Source: an uncultured archaeon (GTDB lineage: Archaea; Aenigmatarchaeota; Aenigmatarchaeia; CG10238-14). Taken from it: a stretch of 64,000 nucleotides of DNA. The DNA lies in NCBI GenBank assembly GCA_964392445.1, contig CAYMPD010000004.1, positions 1 through 64,000 on the forward strand. The letters run 5' to 3'. The position numbers and the translations under genes were made by a program. Under the pieces are notes generated by a model. That model saw only the letters and a program-made list of their open reading frames with translations, ran no database searches and was not told the origin of the DNA. Below are positions 20,752-42,070 of this stretch, piece after piece; position 1 is the stretch's first letter, and every line of letters begins with the position of its first letter.

Positions 20752-20874
20752 TTCCTTATTTTATATGAAATAGAAAAAAATCTCCCACCTCAAATTATAA
20801 ATACTAGTTTAACTATTATGCAGTAACAAGGTGAAAACAATGCGAGGCGAAAATGTTCACATCAGGTGAATTAG

Positions 20875-21102
20875 TTCACTCGTAAGAATAGTTCTGAAGA
20901 AATTTTTGCTTCTAAGATTGCTTCTAAGGGTAGAATAACTATACCGATTAGTCTTAGGGCTAAACTTGGTTGGTTAGAGGGTAAAGAAGTTAAAATTAGA
21001 GTTTCTGGGGATAGTTTAATTCTTTCTGTTAATGGTCAGAATGGTGTAAAGGTTAGCATAGATGATTGTGGCTCATCTGGACCTGGTTCAATTCCAGATT
21101 GA
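20875..21102 (+). pseudogene. AbrB/MazE/SpoVT-type DNA-binding frame without a canonical start, running through tRNA-His
   Basis: Hand translation KIASKGRITIPISLRAKLGWLEGKEVKI; frame opens after TAG 20872 with TTC 5 nt after GGTGA. Confidence 0.6.
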
Positions 21103-21104
21103 CC
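21034..21104 (+). tRNA. tRNA-His(GTG), atypical or damaged 3' acceptor strand
   Basis: GATGA-TTGTGGC-TCATC anticodon arm, GTTCAATTC T-loop, G-1 and C73. Confidence 0.7.
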
Positions 21105-21129
21105 TTGGTAAAAATAGAGGTGAATAAAA

Positions 21130-21861
21130 ATGAAAAAAATAGGAATAATAGGTGGTATGGGACCTGAGGGAACTGCGGATTTGTACATGAAAATAGTAAG
21201 ATATTACCAGGATAATTTTGGAGCAAAGTACGATAAAGATTTCCCACCGATGATGATCTACAGTGTCCCAATACCTGATCTAGTTGAAAATCTGGAAAAT
21301 GAAAAAATAACTTTGGATATGTTATCTGAGGCAGTGAAGACATTGGAAAATGTTGGTTGCGATTTCCTAGTAATAGCGTGCAACACAGTCCAGTTTCTAT
21401 TAGATGATCTTAGAGAATCAGTTAAAATACCAATCCTGGGAATAGCCGAAATAAGTGCTAGGTTTGTGTCAAACAAAAGTTATAAAAAAGTGGGAATATT
21501 AGGAACAGAGGCAACTATATCTCAGAAAAAAGTTTATGAAAAAGATTTTCAGGAAATTGGGGTTGAATTAATTAAACCAATGAAAGATGACCAAGAAGAA
21601 TTAACTAGAATAATAATGAACCAACTTGCAGGTGAAACAACAAAAAAGGAAAAAGATAACTTGAAGACGATAATTGAAAACTTGGAAACCCGTGGAACAG
21701 AAGCTGTTTTAATAGCATGTACAGACTTACCACCAATAATAAATCAGGAAGACTTTGATATCCCGATAATCGATTGCACACAAGTTTATGCTGATGAGGC
21801 GGCGAGATTATCTACTTTTAAATCTAAATTCAATAATAATGTAGGAGATAATTATGTCTAA
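21130..21861 (+). CDS. PLP-independent amino-acid racemase (Asp/Glu/RacX family), two-Cys
   Basis: IGIIGGMGP, IACNT, IACTDLP. Confidence 0.9.
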   Translation: MKKIGIIGGMGPEGTADLYMKIVRYYQDNFGAKYDKDFPPMMIYSVPIPDLVENLENEKITLDMLSEAVKTLENVGCDFLVIACNTVQFLLDDLRESVKIPILGIAEISARFVSNKSYKKVGILGTEATISQKKVYEKDFQEIGVELIKPMKDDQEELTRIIMNQLAGETTKKEKDNLKTIIENLETRGTEAVLIACTDLPPIINQEDFDIPIIDCTQVYADEAARLSTFKSKFNNNVGDNYV

Positions 21862-23155
21862 TAAATTCCAACCACCAAGAGGGACAAGAGATTTTCTCCC
21901 AGAAGAAATGATACTTAGGGAAAAAGTGTTTGATACTGTGAAAAAGGTTTTTAAAAGATATGGTTATGATCCCGCTAAAACACCTGCTTTTGAAAATTTC
22001 GATCTTTTTGCAATGAAAGAATCAATCGGTGAAGGAGAACAGGATAAATTGTATGTATTCGAGGATAAATCTGAGCGAAAGTTAGCGTTAAGATTCGATC
22101 AAACAGTTCCATTAGCAAGATTGGTAGCCACAAATCCTCAGTTACCAAAACCTTTCAAAAGATATGAGATATCAAGAGTTTGGAGATATGAGGATACAAG
22201 AAGAGGACGTTACCGTGAATTCTGGCAATGCGATGTTGATATAGTCGGTTCAAGAGAAATGTCGGCAGATTCTGAAATAATTGATTGTGCGTTGACAATA
22301 ATGGAAGAATTGGGTTTTGAGGATTGCTACGTTAGAATTAATAACAGAAAATTATTATCAGGGATAATCCGATTTGCAGGAGTTGAAGAAAATAAAGTAA
22401 TAGAAGCATTCCGAACGATTGACAAGCTCGACAAGATTGGGATTGGTGGTGTTAAAAAAGAATTGAATGAAAGGGGAATAGAAGACCAAACCGCAGAAAA
22501 AATAATCGAAATAATAGGATTAGAAGGGGAACCGAGAGAAATATTGTCCAAAGTCAAAGATTATTTTGGTGATATCAAAGAAGGTCTGGAAGGTGTGAAA
22601 GAGCTAGAAGAATTAATTAAGAATCTTGAGATGATGGGAAAAGAAAATGTTATCTTTGACATAAGTCTCGCTCGTGGTTTGGATTATTACACTTCAACAA
22701 TTTTTGAGCTTATGGGAAAAGACGAGAAAATAGGTAGTCTGGCAGGAGGAGGAAGATACGATAAAATGATCGGTGCTTTTACTGGCAACAAGAAAGAAAT
22801 ACCTGCAGTGGGCATAGCATTAGGAATAGAAAGAATAATTGATCTTCTGAAAGAAAGGGGAGGTATTTCCCAAAAAACTTACACCAAGGTTTTCGTAATA
22901 AATGTTAATGATCAAGTAAGGGAAAAATCTGTAAAAATATCCCAAGAACTCCGTCAATCAGGAATAAACACCCAGAATGATATCATGGGAAGACCGCTAA
23001 GTAAACAGCTTGACTATGCCAATTCTCTAGGAATACCTTACACAGTTATAGTCGGTCCAAAAGAAGTGGAATCAAATAGATTCAAACTCAAGAACATGAA
23101 AACAGGAGAAGAAACAGAATTAACTCTCGAAAAGATAATCGAAACTCTTTCTTAG
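21854..23155 (+). CDS. hisS: Histidyl-tRNA synthetase
   Basis: RGTRDF, RFDQTVP, GRYREFWQCD, RGLDYY, GGGRYD. Confidence 0.96.
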   Translation: MSNKFQPPRGTRDFLPEEMILREKVFDTVKKVFKRYGYDPAKTPAFENFDLFAMKESIGEGEQDKLYVFEDKSERKLALRFDQTVPLARLVATNPQLPKPFKRYEISRVWRYEDTRRGRYREFWQCDVDIVGSREMSADSEIIDCALTIMEELGFEDCYVRINNRKLLSGIIRFAGVEENKVIEAFRTIDKLDKIGIGGVKKELNERGIEDQTAEKIIEIIGLEGEPREILSKVKDYFGDIKEGLEGVKELEELIKNLEMMGKENVIFDISLARGLDYYTSTIFELMGKDEKIGSLAGGGRYDKMIGAFTGNKKEIPAVGIALGIERIIDLLKERGGISQKTYTKVFVINVNDQVREKSVKISQELRQSGINTQNDIMGRPLSKQLDYANSLGIPYTVIVGPKEVESNRFKLKNMKTGEETELTLEKIIETLS

Positions 23156-23280
23156 AGTACCATTCCACCCGAGAACATAACGGTTGATTCAAGTACTAAC
23201 CCGCATTTTTGACAGATTAAACCTTCTGAGTTGTATTTGAGATTTGTTGAACCACATTCCGGGCACCTTCGGTCTTGCAT
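23152..23280 (-). CDS. 42-aa stand-alone TFIIB-type zinc ribbon
   Basis: Hand translation MQDRRCPECGSTNLKYNSEGLICQKCGLVLE...; AGGT SD; not in ORF track. Confidence 0.7.
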   Translation of the reverse strand: MQDRRCPECGSTNLKYNSEGLICQKCGLVLESTVMFSGGMVL

Positions 23281-23361
23281 AGTTACTACCTGTATGTGGT
23301 TATGAATAGATAGATATAAAAAGGTTTTTGTGGTGGGCTTTACAAGAAATGGATAGTGTTT

Positions 23362-23601
23362 TTATAGGACTTGCCTTGCTAAAAATTCCATCCTAAATCT
23401 TGATAAATTACTGAAATCGTATTGTGCACAAGTATAACCTGCAGTTGAAGTTCTATTATTTTTAGTATCCCTCAAAGTAACTACAATTCCATGAGGACCG
23501 TATGAAATATCTAATATATTATAACTATCTGGACCTCCAAAGGAAGCCACTTGATTTCGTACATCTCTTCTTAAATCATTTCCATTTCCCATAAAATCCA
23601 T
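23362..23601 (-). CDS. Hypothetical protein
   Basis: 79-aa ATG ORF. Confidence 0.5.
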   Translation of the reverse strand: MDFMGNGNDLRRDVRNQVASFGGPDSYNILDISYGPHGIVVTLRDTKNNRTSTAGYTCAQYDFSNLSRFRMEFLARQVL

Positions 23602-23698
23602 TTAACTTTATTTTAAGTTAGATTTAAATAATCAACAAATCCCTATTTTCCCAATTACTTATAAGTCTTCCTTTCCCTAATTAATGAACGTGATGTAA

Positions 23699-25516
23699 AT
23701 GAATGTTAAAAAAATTGTTTGTGATACTTCTATCATTATTGATGGAAAAATTACTGAAATGTTAGAAAAAGACCAATTAGAAGGTTTAGAAGAATTAATT
23801 GTACCTAATGCTGCTCTTGATGAATTACAAGCTCAAGCTTCAAAAGGAAGAAATGAAGGTTATGTAGGATTGGAAGAGTTAAAGAAGATAAGACAATTAT
23901 GTGAAGAGAAAGATATTAATCTCAGATTCACAGGTAAAAGACCTACTCTCGAGGAAATAAAACTTGCTGGTGGGGGGAGATTAGACGCAATAATTCGGGA
24001 CGCTGCAAAGTTCGAGGACGCCACCCTTTTAACAGCAGATTATGTTCAAAGTTTGGTTGGGGATGCAGAAGGTGTAAAAACAGAGTATATTCCACCTGAG
24101 GAAGAAGAGGAAGGAGAGTTAATTTTTGAAAAATATTTTACCCCAGACACAATGAGTGTTCATCTCAAGGAAAATGTTAAACCAATGGGTAAAAGGGGGA
24201 AACCAGGAAAATTCAGGTTGCAAGACATTGAAGACAAACCATTGACAAAACAACAAATGGAAAATATAATTCGAGATATTGTTGAAAGGGCTAGGAAAAC
24301 CGAAGATACATTCATAGAGGCTGAAAGAGGAGGCTCAACAGTAATCCAAATGGGAAACAACCGAATAGCAATAGCCCGTCCACCATTCTCAGACGGATTC
24401 GAAGTAACAATAGTTAGACCAATAGTAAAACTAACACTTGAAGATTACAAATTATCTGATAAGTTGAAAAAAAGATTAAAAGAAAAAGCCGAAGGGGTTC
24501 TAGTTGCAGGTCCACCAGGATCAGGAAAATCAACCTTCACCGCAAGCCTAGCAGAATTCTACTTCTCCCAGGGAAGAATAGTTAAAACACTTGAGTCACC
24601 TAGAGATCTTCAATTAGGTCCAGAAATTACTCAATACGCTCCTTTGGGTGGAGATTATTTCAAGACATCGGATGTTCTTCTTTTGGTAAGACCCGACTAT
24701 ACTATTTTCGACGAAGTGAGACAACCAAACCACTTCCGAATTTTTGCTGATATGAGGCTAGCGGGTGTTGGTATGGTTGGTGTAGTTCATGCTTCTGAGG
24801 CTGTTGATGCGGTTCAAAGATTTATTGGGAAGATTGAGTTAGGAATGATTCCCCATGTGGTTGATACTGTTATTTACATAAGAGCTGGTCAGATAGAAAA
24901 AGTTTATGAACTAGCTTTGACGGTTAAAGTACCTCATGGAATGACTGAGAAAGACTTAACAAGACCGGTTGTAGTAATAAAAGACTTTGAGACTGGTAAG
25001 TTGATATATGAAATCTATACTTATGGTGAGGAAAATGTCGTTATACCGATTGGGGATGAGGAAGAACAATTGAGTGGTCTTGAAAGTTTGGCCAAAGAGG
25101 CGATTAGAAAGGTTATGAAAAAATACGATCCTCAGGCAGAGATTGAATTTATGGGTAAAAATAAGGTTCAAGTTAGAGTCGATAACGACTGTATTGCTAG
25201 ATTAATTGGTAAGAATGGAAGTAATATCTCCCGAATTGAGGACAAGTTAGGTGTGGGAATAGATGTTGAACCTAAGGTTGCAAGTACAGGTAAGAGAGTC
25301 AAGTTCGAAATAGAGGAAGTGGGAAATAATGTTGTTTTTGACTTTTTAAGATCCTTGAAAGGCGAGATGGTCAATGTTTATATTGGTGATGATTATCTTC
25401 TTTCAGCCACTGTTGGTAAAAGTAATGATGTTAAGATAACTAAAGATTCTCCTGTTGGTAAAAAACTTGTTAAGGCTTTGTTGAGTGGGAAGGAAATTAG
25501 GGTTTTGGGTGTTTGA
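23699..25516 (+). CDS. PIN-domain ATPase with KH domain (PINA-like)
   Basis: DTSIIIDG PIN motif, GPPGSGKST Walker A, FDEVR, LIGKNG KH motif. Confidence 0.9.
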   Translation: MNVKKIVCDTSIIIDGKITEMLEKDQLEGLEELIVPNAALDELQAQASKGRNEGYVGLEELKKIRQLCEEKDINLRFTGKRPTLEEIKLAGGGRLDAIIRDAAKFEDATLLTADYVQSLVGDAEGVKTEYIPPEEEEEGELIFEKYFTPDTMSVHLKENVKPMGKRGKPGKFRLQDIEDKPLTKQQMENIIRDIVERARKTEDTFIEAERGGSTVIQMGNNRIAIARPPFSDGFEVTIVRPIVKLTLEDYKLSDKLKKRLKEKAEGVLVAGPPGSGKSTFTASLAEFYFSQGRIVKTLESPRDLQLGPEITQYAPLGGDYFKTSDVLLLVRPDYTIFDEVRQPNHFRIFADMRLAGVGMVGVVHASEAVDAVQRFIGKIELGMIPHVVDTVIYIRAGQIEKVYELALTVKVPHGMTEKDLTRPVVVIKDFETGKLIYEIYTYGEENVVIPIGDEEEQLSGLESLAKEAIRKVMKKYDPQAEIEFMGKNKVQVRVDNDCIARLIGKNGSNISRIEDKLGVGIDVEPKVASTGKRVKFEIEEVGNNVVFDFLRSLKGEMVNVYIGDDYLLSATVGKSNDVKITKDSPVGKKLVKALLSGKEIRVLGV

Positions 25517-25581
25517 GGGGACATTTTTTTATTAAAAATATTCTAAATTCGAGTGTGGAATACAGATTTAGAAATAAATAA

Positions 25582-25863
25582 TCCAGAGGCCCTAGAATTG
25601 TATTAGAAGTTATTGATTGTGACATTAAAACCCAGAAAAATTTATTAGCAACTTTAACAAATTTAGCTTATTCAAGTTTAGATGGTAGATTTCCAGATTC
25701 TTTCCAGATCGCTTATGATCCACCTGGATAAGAAGAAGTAAACAAAATAATAGATGGAATAAAGGAAACAGTGGAGAAATATGGATTAGAGTACGTTGAA
25801 GTTATACCTTCCTCACTTTTCTACCTGAGAGAAACAATAATTGATTTAAATATTATAACTTAA
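25582..25863 (+). pseudogene. Degraded hypothetical ORF
   Basis: Protein-like frame broken by TAA at 25729; no start codon. Confidence 0.3.
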
Positions 25864-25873
25864 TTATCAAATA

Positions 25874-26212
25874 ATGACAGGAATACCAAAAAGGTATAAG
25901 GGACATACACGTGGACATTTAGTATTTTATGGATCCAGTTCTAGTTCTTGGGAAGATTTAGTTGATGCTCTAGGAAGGAGGGGATATGAGATTGAATGCT
26001 ACAAAGAACTAAACGGTGTTGATAAATTACCGGAAAATCTTTCCTTTGTGAGGGGTTCAAAAATTTATGAAGCAGTAGTAATTTATCTTGGAAATGAAAT
26101 GAAAAGATGTGGTCCTTGGAACCCCTTAATCAATCTTTCAGATGCTAATAATTGGAGTGTAGCTCATAAAAATGTAGATAGAGTTCGAAAACCTGAAAGA
26201 AGAAGATTCTAA
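25874..26212 (+). CDS. Hypothetical protein
   Basis: 112-aa ATG ORF. Confidence 0.55.
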   Translation: MTGIPKRYKGHTRGHLVFYGSSSSSWEDLVDALGRRGYEIECYKELNGVDKLPENLSFVRGSKIYEAVVIYLGNEMKRCGPWNPLINLSDANNWSVAHKNVDRVRKPERRRF

Positions 26213-26490
26213 AACAAACTAAATATCCCTTTTTGAATCAAAAAAACAAAAAATACCACATTAAAGAATCCATTACTAAATCCAAGAAGCAAATAACCAC
26301 CGATACCAGCATCAATAATGCTCACAAAGTTCAAACCACCATAACCAATCCCGAGAATTATTCCGAACAGAATCCCTTTAACAACCAGATAGCCACCAAC
26401 AATTCTGTCAATATTACCTGGAAAAAAAGAAGAAGCTAGCAAGACTATTGAGCAGAAAATATCAAGCAATCCAAGTATTCTTCTTATCAT
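26209..26490 (-). CDS. Small membrane protein
   Basis: About four short hydrophobic segments. Confidence 0.65.
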   Translation of the reverse strand: MIRRILGLLDIFCSIVLLASSFFPGNIDRIVGGYLVVKGILFGIILGIGYGGLNFVSIIDAGIGGYLLLGFSNGFFNVVFFVFLIQKGIFSLF

Positions 26491-26552
26491 AACTAGTTCT
26501 TGTTAGTTAAGAGTTTTATAGATGAAAGGTCAGAATTTTGGAAATATAGCGA

Positions 26553-26852
26553 TTAGTAGCTTGTTGTTTCTATAGGCTTCGAGTCCCCTCTTTCAAATCT
26601 TATTTTATTATAAGAGAATCTTATTAATCCGTCAATATCTAGACCTCTCCTGAGTCTGGGATAGCGAGTATATAATTTATTTATTACCTCTGATTCTAGG
26701 TCTCCCCTGACTGGGAGATATAGATCATCAAATTCTGGAGCTCGTCTATCCTCAAATATTGATTCTATATATTCACCTACAACCCTAATAACAAATTCTG
26801 GTAGAAATTTATCAGAGTCTACATCAAAACTACTCATAGTAATAGATAACAA
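26553..26852 (-). CDS. Hypothetical protein
   Basis: 99-aa ORF, acidic/Arg-rich. Confidence 0.5.
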   Translation of the reverse strand: MLSITMSSFDVDSDKFLPEFVIRVVGEYIESIFEDRRAPEFDDLYLPVRGDLESEVINKLYTRYPRLRRGLDIDGLIRFSYNKIRFERGDSKPIETTSY

Positions 26853-26899
26853 GTGAAACGTTTTATCTCTAACATTTACCTTTTATAGAAAAAATAATA

Positions 26900-28756: not shown

Positions 28757-28898
28757 TATTAGAATTAATTGGAAGTGAAACTTAAATTTGGGAGTTGTTT
28801 TTGTGAAAATGTGTACAGGTGTCCATGTTTTGAATTTAAAGTAATTATACAAAAAGATAAAATTATCTAATTCTTTAATAAAACTAGTTACTTAAATT

Positions 28899-29180: not shown

Positions 29181-29374
29181 AGTTTCATTCTATAATGTTA
29201 ATTATTTAAACCTATCGTTTCTCAATTATAACCTCATTATTATCGTGTTTTCACACTTTTATCCTAGTATAATTTTTAGAATACATAATTTTACACAAAA
29301 CTTCAGTCATTTATTGTTAATTATTTTTCAACTTACCCATTAACTTTTTCTTAACTCAAATCGAACTATTAACC

Positions 29375-30583: not shown

Positions 30584-30584
30584 T

Positions 30585-32908: not shown

Positions 32909-32939
32909 TTAATTAATTGGTAAAAGAAGTAAAAGTAAG

Positions 32940-33221: not shown

Positions 33222-33321
33222 GTGTTACTATAAGGTAGTACTCCTATATAAGTATTTCTATATTTTGTCACTTATTTGTGGTTACATAGGTTATAAGACT
33301 TCTGGACCCCAAAAATAATCT

Positions 33322-33639: not shown

Positions 33640-34876
33640 GAGCGACAGCGTCAATATTCTTAGAAATCAAATCTTCAGCAAAACTATGAGTATCATCCCC
33701 ATGTACACAAAAAATCTTCTCAGCTCCAGTTTTTACGATAAAATCAATCAAATCCGAGTGAGAGGCATGAGCACTGAAATCCAATTTTTTAACCATCATC
33801 TTAACCTTAAAATCAAGATCCTCATGAACATATCTACCCGTTTTCAAGAGTTTATCACCCTCAGTATCGGGAACTTGAAATCCAGTCATAATAAGTGAAC
33901 AGTCTTCACGATTATGTAGTTTTTTTAAATAATAAACAACAGCACCACCAGAAAGCATACCACTGGTCGTAATAACCACACAAGGCTTCTTAACAAGTTT
34001 TTTTCTTTGCATATGATGTTCAACATACTTAACTCCCATTCTTTTCATTGCACTTTTAAGTGAATTATACTTATTCTGAAGGTGAGGATAATCGTTAATA
34101 ATATCAGTTGCTTGTCTAGCCATCCCTTCAACATACATAGGAGACTTAATTCCATATTTATCCAGAATTAACATAACTTCTTGTGATCGGGCAATAGCAA
34201 AGCATGCAATAACCGCAATACCATCATTCGCTAGGGTATTTTTAACCGTCTCAATTAGTTTCTTCTCTTCGGCTTCTCTGTTTGGATGTTCATTCCCAAC
34301 ATAAGTAGATTCAGTTATTAGAACATCGGGTGTAGGTATATTCATATCACATCCAGCCAACAATCGAGTACTGTCTGTGTTAAAATCACCAGTGTAAAGA
34401 ATATTTTTACCACCATTTTCAACAAAAAACATACACGAACCAGGAATATGACCAGCATCATAACTTGTTATTTTGGACTTACCAATCTTAAATGGTTTTC
34501 TATAATCAACTCTTCTGAATTTTTTCACTGCTCTTCTGGTATCATGACCTGTGAATCTGATTTTTTTCCCTTCCATTTTTGCGATTTTAATCGAATCTTT
34601 CCAAAGCATTCGGGAAAAGGGTAGTGTTATTTCTTGACCTATTAACGGACAATTCTGGCCTTGATGATAAAGATAGGGAACTGCTCCTGAGTGGTCTAAG
34701 TGGGTATGAGTGAGGAGGATTGAGTTGAGTTTTTCTTTAACCTCCTCCGGATACTGAATCGGTTCTTCTTGAAGCTTCACACCATAATCCATTACTAATT
34801 TCTCGGTTCCTGTATCGACTAGAATTGCGGATGATCCTACTTCGTTACATGCTCCTAAAAAAGATATCTTTGTCAA
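33611..34876 (-). CDS. MBL-fold beta-CASP ribonuclease (aCPSF2-like)
   Basis: HTHLDH, AGHIPGS, YTGD, ESTY, FSAH. Confidence 0.9.
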   Translation of the reverse strand: MTKISFLGACNEVGSSAILVDTGTEKLVMDYGVKLQEEPIQYPEEVKEKLNSILLTHTHLDHSGAVPYLYHQGQNCPLIGQEITLPFSRMLWKDSIKIAKMEGKKIRFTGHDTRRAVKKFRRVDYRKPFKIGKSKITSYDAGHIPGSCMFFVENGGKNILYTGDFNTDSTRLLAGCDMNIPTPDVLITESTYVGNEHPNREAEEKKLIETVKNTLANDGIAVIACFAIARSQEVMLILDKYGIKSPMYVEGMARQATDIINDYPHLQNKYNSLKSAMKRMGVKYVEHHMQRKKLVKKPCVVITTSGMLSGGAVVYYLKKLHNREDCSLIMTGFQVPDTEGDKLLKTGRYVHEDLDFKVKMMVKKLDFSAHASHSDLIDFIVKTGAEKIFCVHGDDTHSFAEDLISKNIDAVAPKRQEEFDL

Positions 34877-34919
34877 ATAAACAACTCCTTGAGAATTTAG
34901 TAGTTAGTATTTAAAAGGA

Positions 34920-35924
34920 TTAACCGTTGAATAGGGGACTTAAAGCTCTTCCGTGTATTCTATTCGATATAGCAGTTGTTAAAATAGCTATTATGCTATG
35001 AATCTCGATAAACTCCCTTTCCTCTTCGGTATAATGATGAGGGATAGTATCTGTTCCTATTATTCTATATCCACCTTCTACAATTCTTTCTTTTGCGGGA
35101 CGCCCTTCTGAATCGGGTGTTAAACCTAGATGTGTTACACAAGTTTCCACGCTTCTAGCACCTCTTTCCATAAGAAGATCTGCAGCATTCATTGATGTAC
35201 CACCAGAATCAAGGATATCATCGTATTGGACAACCTTTAAACCTTCCACATTCCCTATCAAACCTACAGGCCTTGTTTTCCCAACACCCAAACGTTCTTT
35301 TATAATTACGGCTAAAGGTAGACCGAGTACATCTGCGAATCTACGACAATTTTTGATGGCTCCACCGTCAGGAGCAACAATAACAGTTTCATTTATAGAG
35401 TGATTTTCCCTATATTTTTCAGCCAAGAATCTGTATGTAGGAAAAGCTTCAAGATGACAATTCCCAGAGAATGAAGCCACAGCTTGATCAACATGGGGAT
35501 GAAAAGTAAATACTCTATCAGCCCCAGCAACTTCGTATGCATCTGAAACTAATCTAGAACTTATATCCTCTCTATCATAACTTCTATCTTGTCTTAGCCA
35601 AGGATTATAAGGTTCAATTAAAACTACCTGTGTAGCATCACATCTTTTTAGAGTTCTGATAATTGATAAAACCTGAACTAGCGATTCAGCTGCAGGTAAA
35701 GACATTTGATTTATCAAATATACTTCCTTCTTTCTGACAGTGTCACTTAAAGTGAATTTGAGTGAACCATCATTAAATAATGTTTCATATGCTTCTATTA
35801 GCGAGAAGAAATTTCTATCTTTATCTGGGAGACTCTGATAAACTCTTTCTCCTATGTAAAAGGGGACATCAACTTTACGTCTAGGATCGTATTTAGGAAT
35901 AACTATTGCGTAGGGTTGCTTCAT
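34920..35924 (-). CDS. prs: Ribose-phosphate pyrophosphokinase
   Basis: F(N)DG, PWLRQDR, APDGGA, DDILDSGGT; probable ATG 35924. Confidence 0.85.
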   Translation of the reverse strand: MKQPYAIVIPKYDPRRKVDVPFYIGERVYQSLPDKDRNFFSLIEAYETLFNDGSLKFTLSDTVRKKEVYLINQMSLPAAESLVQVLSIIRTLKRCDATQVVLIEPYNPWLRQDRSYDREDISSRLVSDAYEVAGADRVFTFHPHVDQAVASFSGNCHLEAFPTYRFLAEKYRENHSINETVIVAPDGGAIKNCRRFADVLGLPLAVIIKERLGVGKTRPVGLIGNVEGLKVVQYDDILDSGGTSMNAADLLMERGARSVETCVTHLGLTPDSEGRPAKERIVEGGYRIIGTDTIPHHYTEEEREFIEIHSIIAILTTAISNRIHGRALSPLFNG

Positions 35925-36276
35925 ATTAGTAAATTTGAAAAATAACTTTAAGTTCCAAGAAATTTTCAAAAATAAATAATTTTTTTAATATATTATATTA
36001 TTTAACAGCTTTTCTTATAAATCTTTTATTCTAATACCATCTGGATTTTCATATGCTATTCCTAAGTATTGCTCATAGTGTGTTAATGGATTTTTCCCTG
36101 TTGAATCAAGTACATATAATCTACTTTTAGGGGATTCTAGAACTGGAAATTTATGAGACTTATGAGGGAATGTGCCTCAAGTTTCTATATGGTAAACCAA
36201 TCCATTACCAAGTAAAACTTAAATTCTCTTAGTCAATCTAATTATTAATTTATTTTCCTATCACCAATAATTACCT

Positions 36277-37212
36277 ATGAACCTAACACATGGTGCAAAA
36301 ACAGCAGTTAAACAATGTATGAATATTCAGTCCAATGAAAGTGTTCTAATAATAACTGACAATGATATGCCTAGACAGATAACAGGATCACTTTTCCAGC
36401 AATCCCGAAAAATCACAAAAAGTACAGTGGTAAAAAAAATGAAAACTTTAGATAGATCTGGTCAAGAACCTCCAGAAGAAATAGCAAAATTAATGCAACA
36501 ACCCGACGTTCTATTTTTGGTAACATCCAAATCCTTGAGCCACACACAAGCAAGAAGAACAGCATCTCAAAAAGAGGTTAGAATCGCATCAATGCCAACA
36601 GTACCAGTATCATCATTCGTGGATGGAGGTTTAACCGCGGACTATAATCAAGTCAAGAAGAACTGTGAAAGAATGTTTAATGCGATCAAAGAGAAAAAAA
36701 ACATCCACCTAACCTCACCTAATGGAACAGATGTTGAATTAAAAATAGGTCAATACAAACTCGATAAGGACGATGGAATTTATCATGAACCAGGATCTTT
36801 TGGTAATCTTCCTGCGGGAGAAGTATGTACAGCTCCAAATAAATGCTCAACTAATGGGAAACTGGTCTTAGATAAAATGGGAAGGTTTGGGGAGAATATT
36901 AAAATCACAATCAAGAACGGATATGCAATAAAAATACAAGGTTCACCAGAGTTAAAATCAACCGTGATCAAGCTTGGTAAGGACGGACGAAATGTTGCTG
37001 AAATAGGTATAGGTGCTAATCCAAAGGCCAAAGTAATTGGGGTTACACTTGAGGATGAGAAAGTTTACGGTACAGTCCACATGGCACTCGGCAATAATGC
37101 TAGTTGGGGTGGAGATGTTGATGTTCAGTTTCATGATGATGGAATAATTCTTAAACCTACTTTGAAAGTTGATGGTGAAGTTTTGATTAAAGATGGCAAG
37201 TGGGCGATTTGA
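36277..37212 (+). CDS. Aminopeptidase (M29/thermophilic metalloprotease-like)
   Basis: NLPAGEV, AEIGIG, DEK...HMALG. Confidence 0.82.
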   Translation: MNLTHGAKTAVKQCMNIQSNESVLIITDNDMPRQITGSLFQQSRKITKSTVVKKMKTLDRSGQEPPEEIAKLMQQPDVLFLVTSKSLSHTQARRTASQKEVRIASMPTVPVSSFVDGGLTADYNQVKKNCERMFNAIKEKKNIHLTSPNGTDVELKIGQYKLDKDDGIYHEPGSFGNLPAGEVCTAPNKCSTNGKLVLDKMGRFGENIKITIKNGYAIKIQGSPELKSTVIKLGKDGRNVAEIGIGANPKAKVIGVTLEDEKVYGTVHMALGNNASWGGDVDVQFHDDGIILKPTLKVDGEVLIKDGKWAI

Positions 37213-37252
37213 TAAAAAATTATAAGGCCAACAAATCCTATTAATTTCCTAG

Positions 37253-38305
37253 GTGAATAACATCCAATACATACTTGACTTCATAAATGCTAATATGTAC
37301 CTAAAATCCCTGATTATACTAGTTTCATTCTTCCTAGGTTCTAAATTATTCCTGTTCATCACCGAAAGAGTCATTTACAAATTAGTCAAAAAAACAAAAA
37401 CCAGAGTTGACGACAAAATCATTCACAGAACCGGAAAACCTATCTCACTTGTCCTACTTTTAATCGGCCTCAGATTAGCAATACTACCATTGAACTTGGG
37501 AGAAAAACTAATGTCCTCCTCAACAAATTTAATCCTCTCACTAATAATACTAGCCATCTCTTACACATTTGTCATGGTTTTTGACGTTCTGATAAATAAT
37601 TGGGGACTGAAATGGGCGAAAAAAACAAAATCCACTTTAGACGATAACTTAGTCAAACTCTTACAAAAAACGTCCAAAGTAATAATCTTTTCCATAGCAT
37701 TCATTTACGTTCTTGATGTTTGGGGGATAGAAATAATTCCGTTTTTGGCAAGTATGGGTATAGCAGGTATTGCAATCGCATTTGCACTACAAGATAGTCT
37801 GGGAGATGTCTTTGGTGGATTAACACTGATACTTGACAAGTCTGTGAAGATGGGTGATGTGATTGAACTAGATGATAAAACAACTGGGACAGTGATTGAT
37901 ATTGGGTTAAGAAGTACAAAAATGAGGACCTTTGACAATGAGTTGGTAATAGTTCCTAATGGCCAGTTGTCCGATTCAAAAATAATGAACTATGCAGAAC
38001 CCGATCAGACAGTAAGATTAGTTATTCCTTTTGGGGTTGCTTATGGGTCTGATATTGATAAAGTCAAAAAAATAATTCTGAAAAAGATTAAAAATTTGGA
38101 GCATATACTAGACGATCCAAAACCTCTAATAAGGTTCGTGGAAATGGGAGATTCTTCTTTAAACTTTAAGTTGTATCTGCAGGTGGATCACTATTCTAAT
38201 AGATCCGCAACTAAGGATGAAGTAAACACTATTATTTATAACACTTTGAGAAAAGAGGGTATAGAGATACCAAATCCCCAGTTGGATGTTTGGTTAAGGA
38301 AGTAA
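37253..38305 (+). CDS. mscS: Small-conductance mechanosensitive channel
   Basis: GIAGIAIAFALQD, GLRSTKMRTFDNELVIVPN, FGVAYGSD. Confidence 0.92.
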   Translation: MNNIQYILDFINANMYLKSLIILVSFFLGSKLFLFITERVIYKLVKKTKTRVDDKIIHRTGKPISLVLLLIGLRLAILPLNLGEKLMSSSTNLILSLIILAISYTFVMVFDVLINNWGLKWAKKTKSTLDDNLVKLLQKTSKVIIFSIAFIYVLDVWGIEIIPFLASMGIAGIAIAFALQDSLGDVFGGLTLILDKSVKMGDVIELDDKTTGTVIDIGLRSTKMRTFDNELVIVPNGQLSDSKIMNYAEPDQTVRLVIPFGVAYGSDIDKVKKIILKKIKNLEHILDDPKPLIRFVEMGDSSLNFKLYLQVDHYSNRSATKDEVNTIIYNTLRKEGIEIPNPQLDVWLRK

Positions 38306-38449
38306 TACTCCAGCTTTTCCTGTACCAAAACTATTTATACCAATTATGTCATTAGTTATGAGTGAAGTGATGGTGATGAACCGCCAATATGTAACGCTAG
38401 TATAGAAGAAAAAGATTTTACTAGTGATAATAAGCTTCTTCTTGATTGT

Positions 38450-38704
38450 TTGAGGAAAGTTCTTGACGAGAGGCTAACACAAAAACAGAAATTCATTGTT
38501 AACTTTCTACGAGTGAACGGAGCAGATAATATTACACGTTTGGTTGAATTTTTAGCAAAGGAAATGGAATGTTCTGAATCTTGTGTTTGGAATAATATTA
38601 ATTCTTTGAAGAAATGTGGGTTGGTTGAGAATGGTTTGAATAGACCTGTTAAACTTTCTGGGGTTTGCAGAAGTATTTTTGGAGGAGATGATGATGAAAG
38701 GTGA
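38450..38704 (+). CDS. Winged-HTH DNA-binding protein (start uncertain)
   Basis: LTQKQKFI...SESCVWNNINSLKKCGLV; frame open back to 38366. Confidence 0.65.
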   Translation: MRKVLDERLTQKQKFIVNFLRVNGADNITRLVEFLAKEMECSESCVWNNINSLKKCGLVENGLNRPVKLSGVCRSIFGGDDDER

Positions 38705-38725
38705 ATGTTTTTACTTCTTTATTTT

Positions 38726-38841
38726 CCCGTGGTAGCTCAATCGCAGAGCGCCTGGTTGTAGATGGACATAGAATACTTCTTGTTATTCTTGAATGTCTGA
38801 TAGTGACCAGAAGGTTGGGAGTTCAATTCTCTCCCATGGGA
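38726..38841 (+). tRNA. tRNA-Tyr(GTA) with 44-nt intron at 37/38 (38762..38805)
   Basis: C1-G72 and A73; BHB helix TTGT/ATAG with 3-nt bulges; D-loop has only one G. Confidence 0.88.
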
Positions 38842-38857
38842 TCAGAGGCGATGAAAA

Positions 38858-39223
38858 ATGAGTAGAAATAAATATGGACTCAGAATACAGGGCGAAGTTA
38901 GAGATATCTATATTTTTGATTTTATGAATGCTCTTCAGGAATATACAGGAGAGAATATTGGAGTTTTGAATGGTGGTGGAGGCTTAAAGAGACTAGTAAA
39001 CAGTGATGTTGAAGGTAGAGTTAGAGGTGATTGGTATGAAATGATGGTCGAATGTGGTGAACCGAATAGTTTTATACCTTATACAAGGACTTTCCCTATT
39101 AGGTTGGATTTCAAAACCACTCCGAGAAACAAAAGAAGAGCAGATGAAACCATGGAAGATATAATTAGGATAGTGCTAGACAATGGAGGTTCAGTATTCT
39201 TCTATGGAGAGTTTGAGAGGTGA
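38858..39223 (+). CDS. Hypothetical protein
   Basis: 121-aa ATG ORF directly after tRNA-Tyr. Confidence 0.6.
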   Translation: MSRNKYGLRIQGEVRDIYIFDFMNALQEYTGENIGVLNGGGGLKRLVNSDVEGRVRGDWYEMMVECGEPNSFIPYTRTFPIRLDFKTTPRNKRRADETMEDIIRIVLDNGGSVFFYGEFER

Positions 39224-39229
39224 GGTAGT

Positions 39230-39640
39230 ATGTGGCTTGATAAAGTGAAAAAAATACTATATGGAATTTGTTTGACTTCTACAATTTCAGGTTGTGGAGA
39301 TGTGAACATGGATACAAATAGAGAAATATCTAGGTCCGTAACGAGGGAAATTAAAGCAGAGAAATTTGAATGTAAAGAGATTTTTTATCCTGGGGCGGGG
39401 GGAGTTTTTGCGAAAGAAATAATAATCTCAATAGAAGATGAGAATGGAGTATTGTACAGAAGTAATGCTGTATGGCCGACTGAAAATGAAAAATTTGGTT
39501 ACTTTGAAGAATTATGTGGTAGAATGAGAAGAGGGAAGATAGGAGCAGGAGCGGATGTAGCTCTTTACGGAGAAATAAGACCAAGAAGAGACAGTATTTT
39601 ACAAGTAGATGAAATATACCTGACTGATCTAGGTGATTAA
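39230..39640 (+). CDS. Hypothetical, possibly lipoprotein
   Basis: SD GAGGT; ISGC lipobox-like motif. Confidence 0.55.
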   Translation: MWLDKVKKILYGICLTSTISGCGDVNMDTNREISRSVTREIKAEKFECKEIFYPGAGGVFAKEIIISIEDENGVLYRSNAVWPTENEKFGYFEELCGRMRRGKIGAGADVALYGEIRPRRDSILQVDEIYLTDLGD

Positions 39641-39641
39641 A

Positions 39642-40325
39642 ATGAAAACAATAGGAATAATAGGTGGTATGGGACCTGAAACAACTTCAAAATTTTATTT
39701 AGAGCTAATTAGGTTGTCTAGAAGGGAAATGGGTCATTTACCATCAATCATAATAGAAAGCTTACCGATTAGTTTTAGTTCGGAAGAGAATTTTGTTAAA
39801 AACGGAATTAAAGAATCTGAATTCGAGAGATTAATGATTAAATCGGCGAAACGTTTCGAGGAGATAGGGGTTAATCTGGTAGTAATCCCATCAAATACAG
39901 CCCACTTTTTCATAGAAAAAGTCAGGGAAAGCACAAGTATTCCTGTGATGAATATCATAAAGGAAACTACTAAATTGTGTCTCAAAAGGGGTTTTAGGAA
40001 AGTTGGGGTTCTGGGGACTGAAATTACAATGAAAAATAGATTATATGAGAAAGAATTCGAGAAATTTAACATCGAAATTATTAAATTGGATAAGAAAAAT
40101 CAGGAAGAATTATCAAATATAATACATAGAATAGTCACTGGTGATACTAAAACAAAAGATCAAAAAAATTTAGAAAATCTAATGGAAATTTTAAAAAATA
40201 AGGGTGCAGAAGTAATAATTTTGGGTTGCACAGACCTTCAAAATCTAATCAAAGATAGTTCTAATATTGAAATAATCGATAGTATGCATACTCTTGTTGA
40301 AGCAACATTCAGGAAATTATTATGA
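39642..40325 (+). CDS. Asp/Glu/RacX-family racemase paralogue, first catalytic Cys replaced by Ser
   Basis: IGIIGGMGP, IPSNTAH, LGCTDL. Confidence 0.88.
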   Translation: MKTIGIIGGMGPETTSKFYLELIRLSRREMGHLPSIIIESLPISFSSEENFVKNGIKESEFERLMIKSAKRFEEIGVNLVVIPSNTAHFFIEKVRESTSIPVMNIIKETTKLCLKRGFRKVGVLGTEITMKNRLYEKEFEKFNIEIIKLDKKNQEELSNIIHRIVTGDTKTKDQKNLENLMEILKNKGAEVIILGCTDLQNLIKDSSNIEIIDSMHTLVEATFRKLL

Positions 40326-40356
40326 TTAAAAAAACAAAAATTATGTAGGTGATAAT

Positions 40357-40827
40357 GTGTCAAAAGTAGATCAAGTAAAACAGTTCATAGAAGAAAATAA
40401 TCTAGAAGCAGAGATAATAGAGCATGAAGAATCAGGATTAACAAGCGAACAGGCCGCAGAAGCAACAGGAGTAGATATAGAACAAATAATCAAAACACTA
40501 CTATTCATGGACAAGAAACACAGACCAGTAATAGTAATCTGTCAAGGTCATAAAAGAGTCGATATGGATAAAGTGATAAAGTTTGTCGAACTAAAAAAAC
40601 CAAGATTAGCTAGACCAGAAGAAATCAAACAATTACTGGGAACAGAACCAGGAGGAACACCACCGATATGCTTACCCGAAGATATACCAGTTCTGATGGA
40701 TAAAGGAGTCACTAAACAGAAATTTGTGGTTGGGTCAGCGGGAACAAAATTCACTGGCTTAAAACTAAAACCATATGATATTGTTAAATTTACTAATGCT
40801 AAAATAGTTAGTATAACTGAGGGATAG
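40357..40827 (+). CDS. YbaK/ProX-family aminoacyl-tRNA deacylase
   Basis: IIKTLL conserved Lys, GGTPP loop, GSAG. Confidence 0.88.
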   Translation: MSKVDQVKQFIEENNLEAEIIEHEESGLTSEQAAEATGVDIEQIIKTLLFMDKKHRPVIVICQGHKRVDMDKVIKFVELKKPRLARPEEIKQLLGTEPGGTPPICLPEDIPVLMDKGVTKQKFVVGSAGTKFTGLKLKPYDIVKFTNAKIVSITEG

Positions 40828-40831
40828 AGAA

Positions 40832-40975
40832 ATGACAGAATACTTTACAAGATACATCAAATACCCAGACGGAACACTAGAAGAATTAAAAGTTCCTAAG
40901 AAAGAAGTAAGAAAACAAATACTAGAATCTGCTAAAAGAAACAAAGAAATGTTGGACATACTTGCAAAACTTTAG
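40832..40975 (+). CDS. 47-aa hypothetical protein
   Basis: Hand translation MTEYFTRYIKYPDG...MLDILAKL; fills the gap between ybaK-like gene and tyrS. Confidence 0.55.
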   Translation: MTEYFTRYIKYPDGTLEELKVPKKEVRKQILESAKRNKEMLDILAKL

Positions 40976-40984
40976 GTGAAATTA

Positions 40985-42070
40985 ATGGATTTAGAAAAAA
41001 GAATGGAATTAATTAAAAGACCTCCAACTGAAGAGGTAATTACAGAGGAAGACCTGAAAGAATTATTGCAAACAAAAGATCATCCAGTAGCTTATGACGG
41101 GTTTGAAACTTCAGGACTTCTACACTTAGCATCAGGGCCCTTACGTGCAATTAAAGTTCAAGATATGCTTGATGCAGGTTGCGAATTCATTCTATGGATA
41201 GCCGACTGGTTTGCTTATATCAACAACAAAATGGGCGGAGATTTAGAACTCATCAAAAAAACAGGCGAATATTACATCGAAGGTTGGAAAGCGTGTGGAG
41301 TCGACATGAAAAAAGTCAAAGTTATGTGGACGAGCGATGCCGTAAAAGACCCGAATTACTGGAAAGGTGTTATAGATGTTGCCAAGAATACAACCGTCAA
41401 CCGAACAATCCGCTCAGGACCAATAATGGGAAGAAGCGAGTCAGAGATGCAATACACGGCACAGTTGTTCTACCCGATGATGCAGGCGTGGGATCCATTT
41501 TATCTCAAAGCTGATATTCTCCAATTGGGAATGGATCAAAGAAATGCTACAGTTCTTTCGCGTGAATTAACTTCAAAGTTGGGTTATTCGACAAGGGTGT
41601 GTGTTCATCATCATTTATTAGCAGGTTTGCAGGGACCAAAAGAAGGAAGAATGGGACAAGAAACAGCAACAGTTCAGTTAGAAGACAAGATGAGTAAATC
41701 CAAACCAAATACAGCAATATTCATCCACGACAGTAAGAAGGAAATCCAGGAAAAAATAAATGGTGCATTTTGCCCAGAAAAAGTTGTTAAAGGGAACCCA
41801 GTTTTGGAAATATGGAAGTACATAGTCTTCAGAAAATTTGATTCTAGAACTATAAAAAGACCGTCCAAATTCGGTGGAGATATTACAGTCGGAAATTACG
41901 AAGAACTAGAAAATAAGTTCAGAAAAGGAGAATTACACCCATTAGATCTGAAAAAAGAAACATCCGAAGCTTTAAACGAAATAATAAACCCAATAAGGAA
42001 ACATTTCGAAAGAAACAAAAAAGCTAAGAAATTGTACGAAACTGTAAAAAAGGCCAAAATAACCCGCTAA
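40985..42070 (+). CDS. tyrS: Tyrosyl-tRNA synthetase (archaeal)
   Basis: [12 protein letters not shown]-like [22 protein letters not shown]. Confidence 0.93.

Follow-up and report, generated by a model that had tools for sequence, protein, structure and literature searches.

Two loci in the window analysed here, a 64,000-nucleotide stretch of DNA from an Aenigmatarchaeota (DPANN) archaeon, and a third on contig C19 of the same genome each pair an amino-acid racemase with the synthetase for His, Tyr or Trp, behind a short leader in which the cognate codon follows an SD-like GGTGA and an NTT codon. The grouping exceeds chance: the genome's three racemase paralogues each lie 0-3 genes upstream of the single-copy hisS, tyrS or trpS, and the adjacency recurs in at least 8 GTDB families. 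We favour, at a probability of roughly 0.55, a reading in which the modules would be starvation-induced "supply and charge" operons controlled by a +1 frameshift of the prfB kind on a hungry sense codon. We know of no prior description of racemase and synthetase genes in such an operon context.

Both loci of the first-pass annotation were recovered with every listed feature, all on the + strand and in the order given (Table 1). Racemase 1 begins 24 nt past tRNA-His, the reported overlap of hisS with the racemase end measured 8 nt, and the winged-helix matches at the Tyr locus were weak and below cut-off. The AbrB-like regulator named there has its domain match and lacks an ATG, GTG or TTG of its own; a TAG lies just upstream in frame, the ORF listing did not include it, and it is the +1 frame of the cognate-codon leader that makes it readable. 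The frame runs into the tRNA-His gene, which supplies the coding sequence of its tail, and AbrB-like homologues were found in His loci of other genera. New relative to that annotation are the Trp locus, leaders that combine the cognate codon with a +1 frame, avoidance by operon proteins of their cognate residue, and the Ser/Cys site of racemase 2. The 15 kb separating the two loci hold unrelated content.

Table 1. Features of the His and Tyr loci, with positions in the window and the basis of each assignment
Feature	Position	Strand	Basis
His leader ORF MFTSGELVHS (stop)	20853..20885	+	Sequence read; also recovered by genome-wide motif scans
AbrB/SpoVT-like frame, +1 frame of the leader	20878..21102	+	PF04014, 34 bits (cut-off 24.7)
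tRNA-His(GUG), second, divergent copy	21034..21105	+	ARAGORN; Rfam, 35.3 bits
Racemase 1, His-linked clade	21130..21861	+	PF01177, 138 bits; TIGR00035, 167.5 bits
hisS	21854..23155	+	TIGR00442, 405 bits (cut-off 286.75)
Small HTH protein, wHTH-like, no Tyr	38396..38704	+	HTH_11, 21.7 bits, weak, below cut-off
Tyr leader ORF MMMKGECFYFFIFPW (stop)	38688..38735	+	Genome-wide motif scans and frame reading
+1 frame after the Tyr codon	38713..38865	+	50 open codons spanning tRNA-Tyr and its intron from end to end
tRNA-Tyr(GUA), 44-nt intron, second divergent copy	38726..38841	+	Rfam, 47.9 bits; ARAGORN intron mode
121-aa ORF, family-less	38858..39223	+	Pfam/NCBIfam search
136-aa ORF, signal-peptide/lipobox-like N-terminus	39230..39640	+	No family match (Pfam/NCBIfam)
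Racemase 2, Tyr-linked clade	39633..40325	+	PF01177, 117.9 bits; TIGR00035, 158.5 bits
YbaK/ProX-type free-standing tRNA_edit protein	40357..40827	+	PF04073, 97.8 bits
Conserved 47-aa protein directly before tyrS	40832..40975	+	Homologues at the same place in two congeners
tyrS, sole TyrRS	40976..42070	+	NF006330, 395 bits (cut-off 220)

hisS was confirmed as the genome's sole HisRS gene by tblastn. At the Tyr locus the HTH protein shares 72% identity with a congener's version; its start is uncertain, the conserved N-terminus lying upstream of the first TTG (38450). The intron-bearing tRNA-Tyr was missed by ARAGORN at default settings and found in intron mode; the other tRNA-Tyr copy is on contig C1, and in a congener the homologous tRNA also follows a Tyr leader. 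The 121-aa ORF gave no Pfam or NCBIfam match and no homologue in the related loci examined, and the 136-aa ORF comes with a separate SD and ATG, both beyond the TGA of the ORF before it. Racemase 2 likely starts at ATG 39642 and tyrS at ATG 40985, 5 nt after a GGTGA and with a conserved MDLEK start.

The third module comprises a wHTH protein, a racemase, two small ORFs, a YbaK-like protein and TrpRS. Racemase-synthetase adjacency was surveyed in Aenigmatarchaeota and proved conserved: among 79 racemases from ∼60 genomes of the class, 44 lie just upstream of hisS (21), tyrS (8) or trpS (15), counts that are not independent since related genomes share ancestry. Two of the 79 adjoin an AspRS of the non-discriminating type. 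Racemase-bearing genomes make up only ∼1/5 of the class.

The linked proteins avoid the residue that they would help to supply. The AbrB-like frame, racemase 1 and HisRS together contain no His in 750 residues where ∼11 were expected (0 in the 433 residues of HisRS, 0 in racemase 1), and racemase 2 has 2 Tyr against 9.2 expected. Across the class, 19 of 21 His-linked racemases are His-free, a state seen in 0 of 26 from the remaining labelled groups; Tyr-linked racemases average 1.75 Tyr compared with 6-7 elsewhere, and all 15 Trp-linked racemases lack Trp. A composition check detected no depletion of the cognate residue in TyrRS, TrpRS, ProRS, the 47-aa protein or the two Tyr-locus ORFs that lack a family match. 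Where present, the avoidance suggests a design for starvation.

Racemase 1 belongs to the PLP-independent Asp/Glu-racemase superfamily. The best solved match of the window's racemases was P. horikoshii Asp racemase (1JFL; E 7e-39 and 7e-36), of the same fold and family, with PF01177 and TIGR00035 above their cut-offs. Racemases 1 and 3 retain the two-Cys acid/base pair of 1JFL and of the broad-specificity RacX/YgeA branch, and in nearly all family members the catalytic Cys pair and the substrate-binding NT and T motifs persist. The counterparts of 1JFL Arg48 and Lys164 are hydrophobic here, in contrast to that enzyme: R and K occur there only in the AspRS-linked clade, other clades having I/V/L/F/A and L/V/N. 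This pattern and the conserved adjacency speak against racemases of strict Asp/Glu specificity in an unconserved setting: the AspRS-linked clade alone retains these Asp-binding positions, which hold hydrophobic residues in the clades linked to His, Tyr and Trp. RacX-type members act on Trp and many further amino acids, and racemisation of Trp and other non-acidic amino acids is known from relatives in this superfamily (PMC12838360). Clades in the racemase tree track synthetase type, with 16 label changes compared with 40 under shuffled labels (0 of 200 shuffles gave a value as low); unlike 1JFL and RacX/YgeA, they go with the genes for HisRS, TyrRS or TrpRS and avoid the corresponding residue. 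The earlier suggestion that the racemases are tuned to the neighbouring synthetase's amino acid thus gains indirect but independent support from adjacency, clades and pocket residues, and we infer such specialisation from four lines (clades, the Arg48/Lys164 positions, residue avoidance and leaders).

In racemase 2 the first catalytic Cys is replaced by Ser and the second is kept (alignment to 1JFL and 2DX7), a difference from 1JFL that is unique to this genome, the orthologues retaining Cys. Because asymmetric relatives with Thr/Cys or Ala/Cys either favour L-to-D or are inactive (PMC12838360), the Ser/Cys pair argues for L-to-D bias or decay in this enzyme alone. The Tyr enzyme here may therefore perform no D-Tyr salvage, or decay may be under way.

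The same pair would suit an alternative that we consider unlikely, in which the racemases run from L to D to yield a D-amino-acid product (an envelope component, a peptide or a signal), possibly in a tRNA-dependent manner. The TyrRS-like partner found in relatives would then work as cyclodipeptide synthases or transferases do, with the YbaK-like protein shielding translation from the D-amino acids made. Such a pathway would accommodate both a TyrRS-fold protein without HIGH or KMSKS that is conserved beside the racemase in 29 loci, cyclodipeptide synthases being class Ic derivatives too, and the Asp-type racemases that stand, in other genomes of the class, beside two ATP-grasp ligases and no synthetase. 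However, the TyrRS-like protein gave no match to the Pfam CDPS family at E below 0.001, TyrRS ranked top in Foldseek, and the protein, kept by congeners, is wholly absent from this genome, having been lost from its Tyr locus. The linked synthetases are moreover the only copies in the genome, and there would be little point in draining a scarce amino acid, given that the modules avoid it and follow leaders predicted to react when it runs short.

Quite improbable, too, is a role for the racemase-like proteins on the aminoacyl ester or adenylate (for example, epimerising D-aminoacyl-tRNA), or as sensors of the amino acid or modulators of the synthetase. The tight packing and the overlap of racemase 1 with hisS suggest translational coupling, the synthetase-shaped partner without ATP motifs recurs beside the racemase, and editing domains occur in the same operons, all as such a role might require; the retained Cys pair and NT/T motifs are nevertheless those of free-amino-acid racemases. 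We know of no precedent for a racemase-like protein acting on an aminoacyl ester or as a synthetase partner.

The leaders share one layout, with the downstream frame at +1. At the His locus GGTGA (20865-20869) is followed by a P-site GTT (20874-20876), the His codon CAC (20877-20879) and a stop (20883-20885); at the Tyr locus GGTGA (38700-38704) is followed by TTT (38709-38711) and the Tyr codon TAC (38712-38714). The Tyr leader extends over the 3' end of the HTH gene and into the opening bases of tRNA-Tyr, and equivalents were found in three further genomes of two genera. Genome-wide scanning gave 22 motif hits. The 8 of the form GGTGAA-NNN-NTT precede ProRS, HisRS, TyrRS, CysK-CysRS and the TrpRS module (4 hits), each with the cognate codon. 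In relatives, the codon after NTT was a His codon (CAY) in 17 of 31 hits at hisS loci and Trp in 18 of 24 at trpS loci, the antisense control giving 9 scattered hits; three His-locus leaders also bear TGG at the best motif position. The search found no leader at AspRS loci, nor at most Tyr loci outside the window's own family.

The +1 frame that follows the Tyr codon closes at a TAG lying over codons 2-3 of the gene behind it; of all sense frames that cross tRNA genes in this genome, just 22% are open. For the Tyr and Pro leaders, the +1 product is not recognisable as any protein. In CysK the first ATG comes only after the conserved N-terminus LIGNTPLV, which belongs to the +1 frame and sits behind a TAG, and the cysK model TIGR01139 matched the +1 translation with 377 bits from profile position 3 (residue 7). 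The GTG within GGTGAA is a possible ordinary start in several genes, so that a frameshift is not required for those; in racemase 3 it lies 8 nt after GGAGG and is plausible. It is impossible where a TAG follows, as in the AbrB-like frame, the Trp-locus HTH gene and CysK. That the modules reflect inherited synteny without functional coupling, the leaders being ordinary SD/GTG starts that sense no amino acid, is very improbable: shared ancestry of the genomes and the racemase 3 start would allow it, but the post-NTT codon matches the downstream synthetase in five operons here and dozens of loci across families, the cassette precedes non-homologous proteins (HTH, AbrB, TyrRS-like, racemase, CysK, orphans), the TAG rules out GTG in the genes just named, and residue avoidance tracks synthetase type. 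The short cognate-codon leader appears to switch each gene set on in amino-acid shortage.

In the supply-and-charge reading, an amino-acid-dependent host would maintain one operon per amino acid, with leader codons CAC for His, TAC for Tyr and, on contig C19, TGG for Trp. When charged cognate tRNA is plentiful, the ribosome would read on and stop a few codons later. When it is scarce, the ribosome would pause with an empty A site and slip by +1, as at prfB, into the downstream frame, which would yield the AbrB-like regulator at the His locus and at the Tyr and Pro loci would carry translation across the embedded tRNA gene up to the start of the next gene. Expression would thereby be coupled to shortage of the cognate amino acid, and the module would provide an extra cognate tRNA copy and the synthetase. 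From D-His, D-Tyr or D-Trp obtained by scavenging (in relatives, D-Asp), the racemase would make the L form and in doing so lower the D pool. The YbaK-type deacylase of the Tyr and Trp loci would strip tRNA wrongly charged with the D form or with a near-cognate residue, DTD not having been found in this lineage.

The YbaK/ProX-type protein of the Tyr locus carries the KTL lysine and the Gly/Pro loop (GxxPP) of the INS superfamily, passes the Pfam tRNA_edit cut-off and has APE2540 (1WDV) and TTHA1699 (2CX5) as its closest relatives of solved structure. It differs from YbaK/ProX in that its score (81 bits) is under the YbaK equivalog cut-off of 153 and in that the paralogues accompany TyrRS and TrpRS, not ProRS; one genus has a B3_4 domain at this place instead. 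Searches of 301 genomes of the class found DTD1 in none and DTD2 in one, with no DTD in this genome. The racemases cannot be a general DTD substitute, because they occur in only that fifth of genomes and DTD is missing from nearly all. DTD1 and DTD2 are functional analogues that handle D-Tyr, D-Trp and D-Asp, the D-forms documented as charged onto tRNA (PMC1807948) and three of the four racemase-module amino acids; they share no homology with the proteins here, whose chemistry would act mainly before charging. Chirality control or D-amino-acid salvage, as first proposed, is in part supported by linkage, clades, pocket residues and the DTD searches; we infer the substrates and direction of the racemases, the substrate of the deacylase, and the frameshift with its dependence on tRNA charging.

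The leaders resemble prfB (release factor 2) in their internal SD-like element placed a few nucleotides ahead of a slippery NTT/CTT P-site codon, slow A-site codon and +1 product. Unlike in prfB, the A site would hold a sense codon for the downstream synthetase's amino acid instead of a stop, and the evidence here is in silico; the setting is also archaeal, with several cassettes per operon and, in three loci, a +1 frame across a tRNA gene. As in pheST or amino-acid operon attenuation and T-boxes, charging of the cognate tRNA, read at leader codons, would switch synthetase or supply genes. The modules differ from those systems in that no terminator or antiterminator hairpins came to light, a shift of reading frame is the proposed read-out, and the supply gene is a racemase (or CysK) in place of a biosynthetic pathway. 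An archaeon using a D-amino acid via an induced racemase is known (PMC13628549). The P. horikoshii cluster holds the BAR racemase, induced so that a D-amino acid can replace the L form, with a transporter and a small DNA-binding FFRP regulator (PMC13628549); BAR differs in being PLP-dependent, broad in specificity, regulated by ligand binding to the regulator and without a synthetase or tRNA link.

The second tRNA-His copy of the window was aligned with the other copy, on contig C17. Its acceptor stem is imperfect as assembled, and a variant in one Logan contig (+TC after 21099 and A>G at 21102) gives the canonical 8-bp His acceptor stem.

Profile, Rfam and tRNA searches recovered both loci that the first-pass annotation had described, in each of which a regulator-like frame, a tRNA gene, a racemase and a synthetase lie on the plus strand (table below). 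The 15 kb that separate the His locus from the Tyr locus have unrelated content.

Features of the His and Tyr loci in the window, with the profile or covariance-model scores that identify them.
Feature	Position	Strand	Evidence or remark
His leader ORF	20853-20885	+	
AbrB/SpoVT-like frame	20878-21102	+	PF04014 (MazE_antitoxin), 34 bits (cut-off 24.7); product of the +1 frame
tRNA-His(GUG)	21034-21105	+	RF00005, 35.3 bits (threshold 29)
Racemase 1, PLP-independent Asp/Glu family	21130-21861	+	PF01177, 138.1 bits (cut-off 31); TIGR00035, 167.5 bits (cut-off 93.1)
hisS	21854-23155	+	8-nt overlap with racemase 1; TIGR00442, 405 bits
Small HTH protein, Tyr locus	end at 38704	+	
tRNA-Tyr(GUA)	38726-38841	+	44-nt intron; RF00005, 47.9 bits (threshold 29)
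Two ORFs, Tyr locus	38858-39223 and 39230-39640	+	no family match
Racemase 2	39633-40325	+	34% identity to racemase 1; PF01177, 117.9 bits (cut-off 31); TIGR00035, 158.5 bits (cut-off 93.1)
YbaK/ProX-type editing domain	40357-40827	+	PF04073, 97.8 bits (cut-off 25.5)
Conserved 47-aa protein	between the YbaK-like gene and tyrS	+	
tyrS	end at 42070	+	NF006330, 395 bits

The two ORFs that follow tRNA-Tyr were considered as a single gene broken by a stop, which was rejected because the second ORF begins like a signal peptide, from an ATG preceded by an SD of its own. They were also considered as remnants of the TyrRS-like protein that congeners carry at that place, and this was rejected as BLAST and HMM similarity was absent. 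The 47-aa ORF was rejected as a Tyr-rich leader, being a conserved small protein whose Tyr positions are not conserved. In the Tyr-locus HTH protein a conserved N-terminus, NAS[IL].EKDFTSDNKLLL, lies upstream of the first ATG/GTG/TTG (window 38366-38450); at the place of the expected start the sequence has ATA, or else a start-stop ATG-TAA shifted out of frame by one base.

TIGR00035 has exactly three matches in the assembly (54 contigs, 1.2 Mb, 95% complete). The third belongs to a module on another contig, C19:18637-21959 (fetched locus L004:6638-9963), with an HTH gene, racemase 3, two small ORFs, a second YbaK-like protein and TrpRS (NF008927, 530 bits) in that order. HisRS, TyrRS and TrpRS all scored above the cut-offs of their equivalog models and were found by tblastn in one copy each in the genome, which makes them the housekeeping enzymes. 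On contig C1 (C1:115650-119553, L050:2651-6554) there is a third YbaK paralogue, separated from a downstream ThrRS gene by a few small ORFs; it adjoins a response-regulator receiver gene and three small ORFs, and this ThrRS carries the archaeal editing domain.

Racemases of this kind were carried by 63 of the 301 genomes examined in the class. A total of 78 racemase loci were fetched, and each was labelled with any synthetase located no more than five genes downstream on the same strand; all named relatives were Candidatus Aenigmatarchaeota MAGs, mostly from groundwater. hisS was downstream in 20 of the fetched loci, trpS in 14 and tyrS in 7. With the window genome's three included, 44 of 79 racemases were linked to one of these genes, the His linkage extending across 8 GTDB families, the Trp linkage across 4 and the Tyr linkage across 3. 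The adjacency seen in the window is conserved in the class. Two more racemases lie directly upstream of a non-discriminating AspRS (NF003483, 475 bits) and six further ones have the Tyr-type partner protein with tyrS not in view, the remainder having unrelated neighbours that include a pair of ATP-grasp ligases. A literature search for a racemase together with a synthetase in DPANN or Aenigmarchaeota found nothing.

The modules had been interpreted as a chirality-control or D-amino-acid salvage system with racemases tuned to the amino acid of the neighbouring synthetase. Four independent lines agree in suggesting that this tuning is real, namely the racemase tree, the pocket residues, the avoidance of the cognate residue and the leader codon. 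When a maximum-likelihood tree was built from the 79 racemases, synthetase labels changed 16 times on it, against a mean of 40 for shuffled labels, and 0 of 200 shuffles gave a value as low. In the pocket, the residues aligned with Arg48/Lys164 of the P. horikoshii Asp racemase (PhAspR), which we take to bind the side-chain carboxylate of the substrate, are L/L in racemase 1, F/V in racemase 2 and I/L in racemase 3. Among the clades, the AspRS-linked one alone has R and K at these positions; I/V/L/F/A and L/V/N stand there in those linked to His, Tyr and Trp. Racemases 1-3 accordingly lack the basic residues of an aspartate racemase sensu stricto (PhAspR type). The catalytic Cys pair (Cys82/Cys194 of PhAspR) is present in racemases 1 and 3. 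In racemase 2 the first of the two is replaced by Ser and the second is kept (IPSNTAH, compared with MPCNTAH in PhAspR); this Ser is unique to the window genome and the closest orthologues have Cys. The NT and T motifs and both Cys were retained nearly everywhere among the racemases compared. Members of the Asp/Glu-racemase superfamily racemise Trp and many other amino acids (PMC12838360), which makes it chemically plausible that these enzymes have specialised on the amino acid of their neighbour.

The AbrB-like protein, racemase 1 and HisRS together contain 0 His in 750 residues (∼11 expected). Racemase 2 contains 2 Tyr (9.2 expected), the Tyr-locus YbaK-like protein 1 Tyr (6.2 expected) and the five proteins upstream of TrpRS 0 Trp. 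His was absent from 19 of 21 His-linked racemases versus 0 of 26 in the other labelled groups, most of the linked HisRS of relatives were also without His, and the mean Tyr content was 1.75 in Tyr-linked racemases versus 6-7 in the others. Such avoidance offers a means of predicting, from sequence alone, which amino acid an unknown enzyme serves.

The genome was scanned for leaders consisting of a start codon followed within 15 codons by GGTG[AG], four bases, an N[TC]T codon and any codon X, with a 0-frame stop within 30 codons and a +1 frame open for 40 codons or more. There were 22 matches, 8 of them of the form GGTGAA-NNN-NTT-X, and an antisense control gave 9 scattered matches. In the 8 matches X was CAC (window 20877), TAC (window 38712), CCA before tRNA-Pro(UGG) and ProRS (C1:27200-28796, L046:2201-3796), TGT before CysK-CysRS (contig C13, C13:15412-17733, L049:1913-4234) and TGG four times in the Trp module, where all four genes before the YbaK-like gene have an ATG leader ending GE-x-[VFI]-W and a body in the +1 frame. 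Matches with Asp or Glu codons on contig C9 fell in virus-like regions without synthetases and were treated as chance. In the fetched loci of relatives X was a His codon in 17 of 31 matches of hisS loci and a Trp codon in 18 of 24 matches of trpS loci. TGG at the best motif position in three His loci was only an apparent exception to the codon rule, as an NTT-CAC site is present in each of these leaders as well. Tyr leaders (…CTT TAC) precede a TyrRS-like gene or tRNA-Tyr in three more genomes of the window's family; the AspRS loci and most Tyr loci outside that family yielded none. The proteins that follow the cassette are non-homologous, which rules out protein homology as its explanation.

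The His, Tyr, Pro, Cys and Trp cassettes share a layout of the prfB type, with a short 0-frame ORF, a downstream ORF in the +1 frame and an SD-like element placed 3-4 nt upstream of a slippery codon for the P site. The geometry is similar to that of the prfB +1 site, in which the SD-like element is followed by a 4-nt spacer, a slippery NTT codon and a slowly decoded codon. Unlike prfB, the A-site is occupied by a sense codon (CAC, TAC, TGG, CCA or TGT) and no stop is decoded by the gene product, and the likeness would be one of mechanism, not of membership. From this layout we infer a +1 frameshift at the leaders. The alternative, initiation at the GTG within GGTGAA, could be real in some genes. 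It is excluded for the AbrB-like frame, the Trp-locus HTH gene and CysK because TAG follows (GTG AAT TAG), and CysK and the AbrB-like frame have no possible start in their own frame. In CysK the conserved LIGNTPLV lies upstream of the first ATG, within a segment covered by the cysK model, and is readable only in the +1 frame. On frameshift leaders of synthetase genes in archaea, a literature search brought up general reviews only.

The embedded tRNA-His and tRNA-Tyr genes are second, divergent copies. tRNA-His recurs in the His loci of three other genomes, and in a congener tRNA-Tyr comes after the Tyr leader. From the Tyr and Pro leaders the +1 frame is open across the entire tRNA gene and stops at, or just within, the start of the next gene; of all sense frames that cross tRNA genes in this genome, only 22% are open. 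In the window's version of the His locus the +1 frame stops 3 nt before the tRNA end and the acceptor stem is imperfect. A search of sequencing runs for this DNA gave a single DNA run (microbial mat, probably the source sample) and no RNA run. Its Logan contigs agree with the window except at the tRNA-His 3' end, where one contig, of low depth and with the site near its end, differs by an extra TC after 21099 and by A>G at 21102. With these changes the His acceptor stem would become canonical, at 8 bp, and the +1 frame would end 3 nt before the racemase 1 ATG; window 21099-21102 may represent an assembly error or a strain variant. tRNA-Tyr was missed by default ARAGORN and found by Rfam and by ARAGORN in intron mode. 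At window 59547-59641 ARAGORN reported a tRNA with a 4-base anticodon (Rfam 49.6 bits), which is probably an intron-containing tRNA that was mis-parsed.

Searches of the 301 genomes of the class for D-aminoacyl-tRNA deacylase (DTD) gave DTD1 in 0 and DTD2 in 1, and both search controls worked. Both mischarging and the action of DTD are documented for D-Tyr, D-Trp and D-Asp (PMC1807948), which correspond to three of the four synthetase types with a linked racemase. The YbaK-like proteins keep the catalytic Lys (motif IIKTLLF in the Tyr locus) and are not equivalogs of the YbaK Cys-tRNA(Pro) deacylase, the Tyr-locus protein scoring 81 bits with TIGR00011 (cut-off 153.25). The nearest solved relatives of the YbaK-like proteins are APE2540 and TTHA1699. 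These proteins are confined to the window's own family; their place is taken in one genus by a B3_4 domain together with an amidase of the FmdA/AmdA type. In 29 loci of relatives (His, Tyr and Trp loci, e.g. L036:3942-4775, L065:5694-6521, L059:412-1380) a 240-360-aa protein with no Pfam match at E < 0.001 adjoins the racemase. Its predicted structure (pLDDT 95) most closely resembled archaeal TyrRS (TM ∼0.65). The HIGH and KMSKS motifs are absent from this TyrRS-like partner, which also avoids the cognate residue; the family was seen only in Aenigmatarchaeota and none was found in the window genome.

DPANN cells make few amino acids, and to our knowledge the sensing of amino-acid shortage and the regulation of synthetases in archaea are largely unknown. 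A starvation-induced supply-and-charge operon would be the most economical explanation of these loci, and growth on a D-amino acid via an induced racemase has an archaeal precedent (PMC13628549). The Ser/Cys site of racemase 2 is a caveat to this explanation, as is the possible GTG start in some genes; a further caveat is the patchy distribution of the racemases in a class that lacks DTD almost throughout. The fullest reading, to which we assign a probability of roughly 35%, combines a general archaeal counterpart of attenuation and T-box control with a radiation of the racemase fold and a stand-in for DTD. One hungry sense codon, by way of a +1 frameshift, would report how far one tRNA is charged and turn on the operon that encodes this tRNA together with the cognate synthetase and a dedicated supply enzyme. 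For that supply role, enzymes specific for His, Tyr, Trp and Asp would have radiated from the Asp/Glu-racemase fold. The racemases and their YbaK-type, B3_4-type and TyrRS-shaped partners would salvage D-amino acids and, in place of the missing DTD, keep D-amino acids off tRNA.

If this combined reading is true, frameshifting at one codon would answer, in a simple and testable way, how archaea sense amino-acid shortage and regulate their synthetases, and it would be a new natural use of hungry-codon frameshifting. His-, Tyr- and Trp-specific racemases of the Asp/Glu fold would be new enzymes, useful in biocatalysis, and would show that DPANN can live on D-amino acids from neighbours. A class without DTD raises the question of how translation polices chirality; the candidate guards are the racemase before charging and the YbaK-type, B3_4-type and TyrRS-like proteins after charging.

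In relatives, variable inserts separate the racemase and trpS (L042:6686-9195 and L035:4724-5982), one set comprising an unknown protein of 325 aa, a free-standing B3_4 domain and an amidase of the FmdA/AmdA type, and the other a GNAT acetyltransferase and a CxxCxxCC protein. In two congeners (L034:1707-3482, L038:5342-7126, L037:4602-6410) the open frames of hisS/trpS are ∼160-230 codons longer at the 5' end (591-602 aa). At L054:2144-5002 and L057:5680-8590, Asp-type racemases that keep R48 and K164 are followed by two ATP-grasp (RimK/GSH-synthetase-like) ligases and no synthetase, and this arrangement may represent a D-Asp-ligating pathway.
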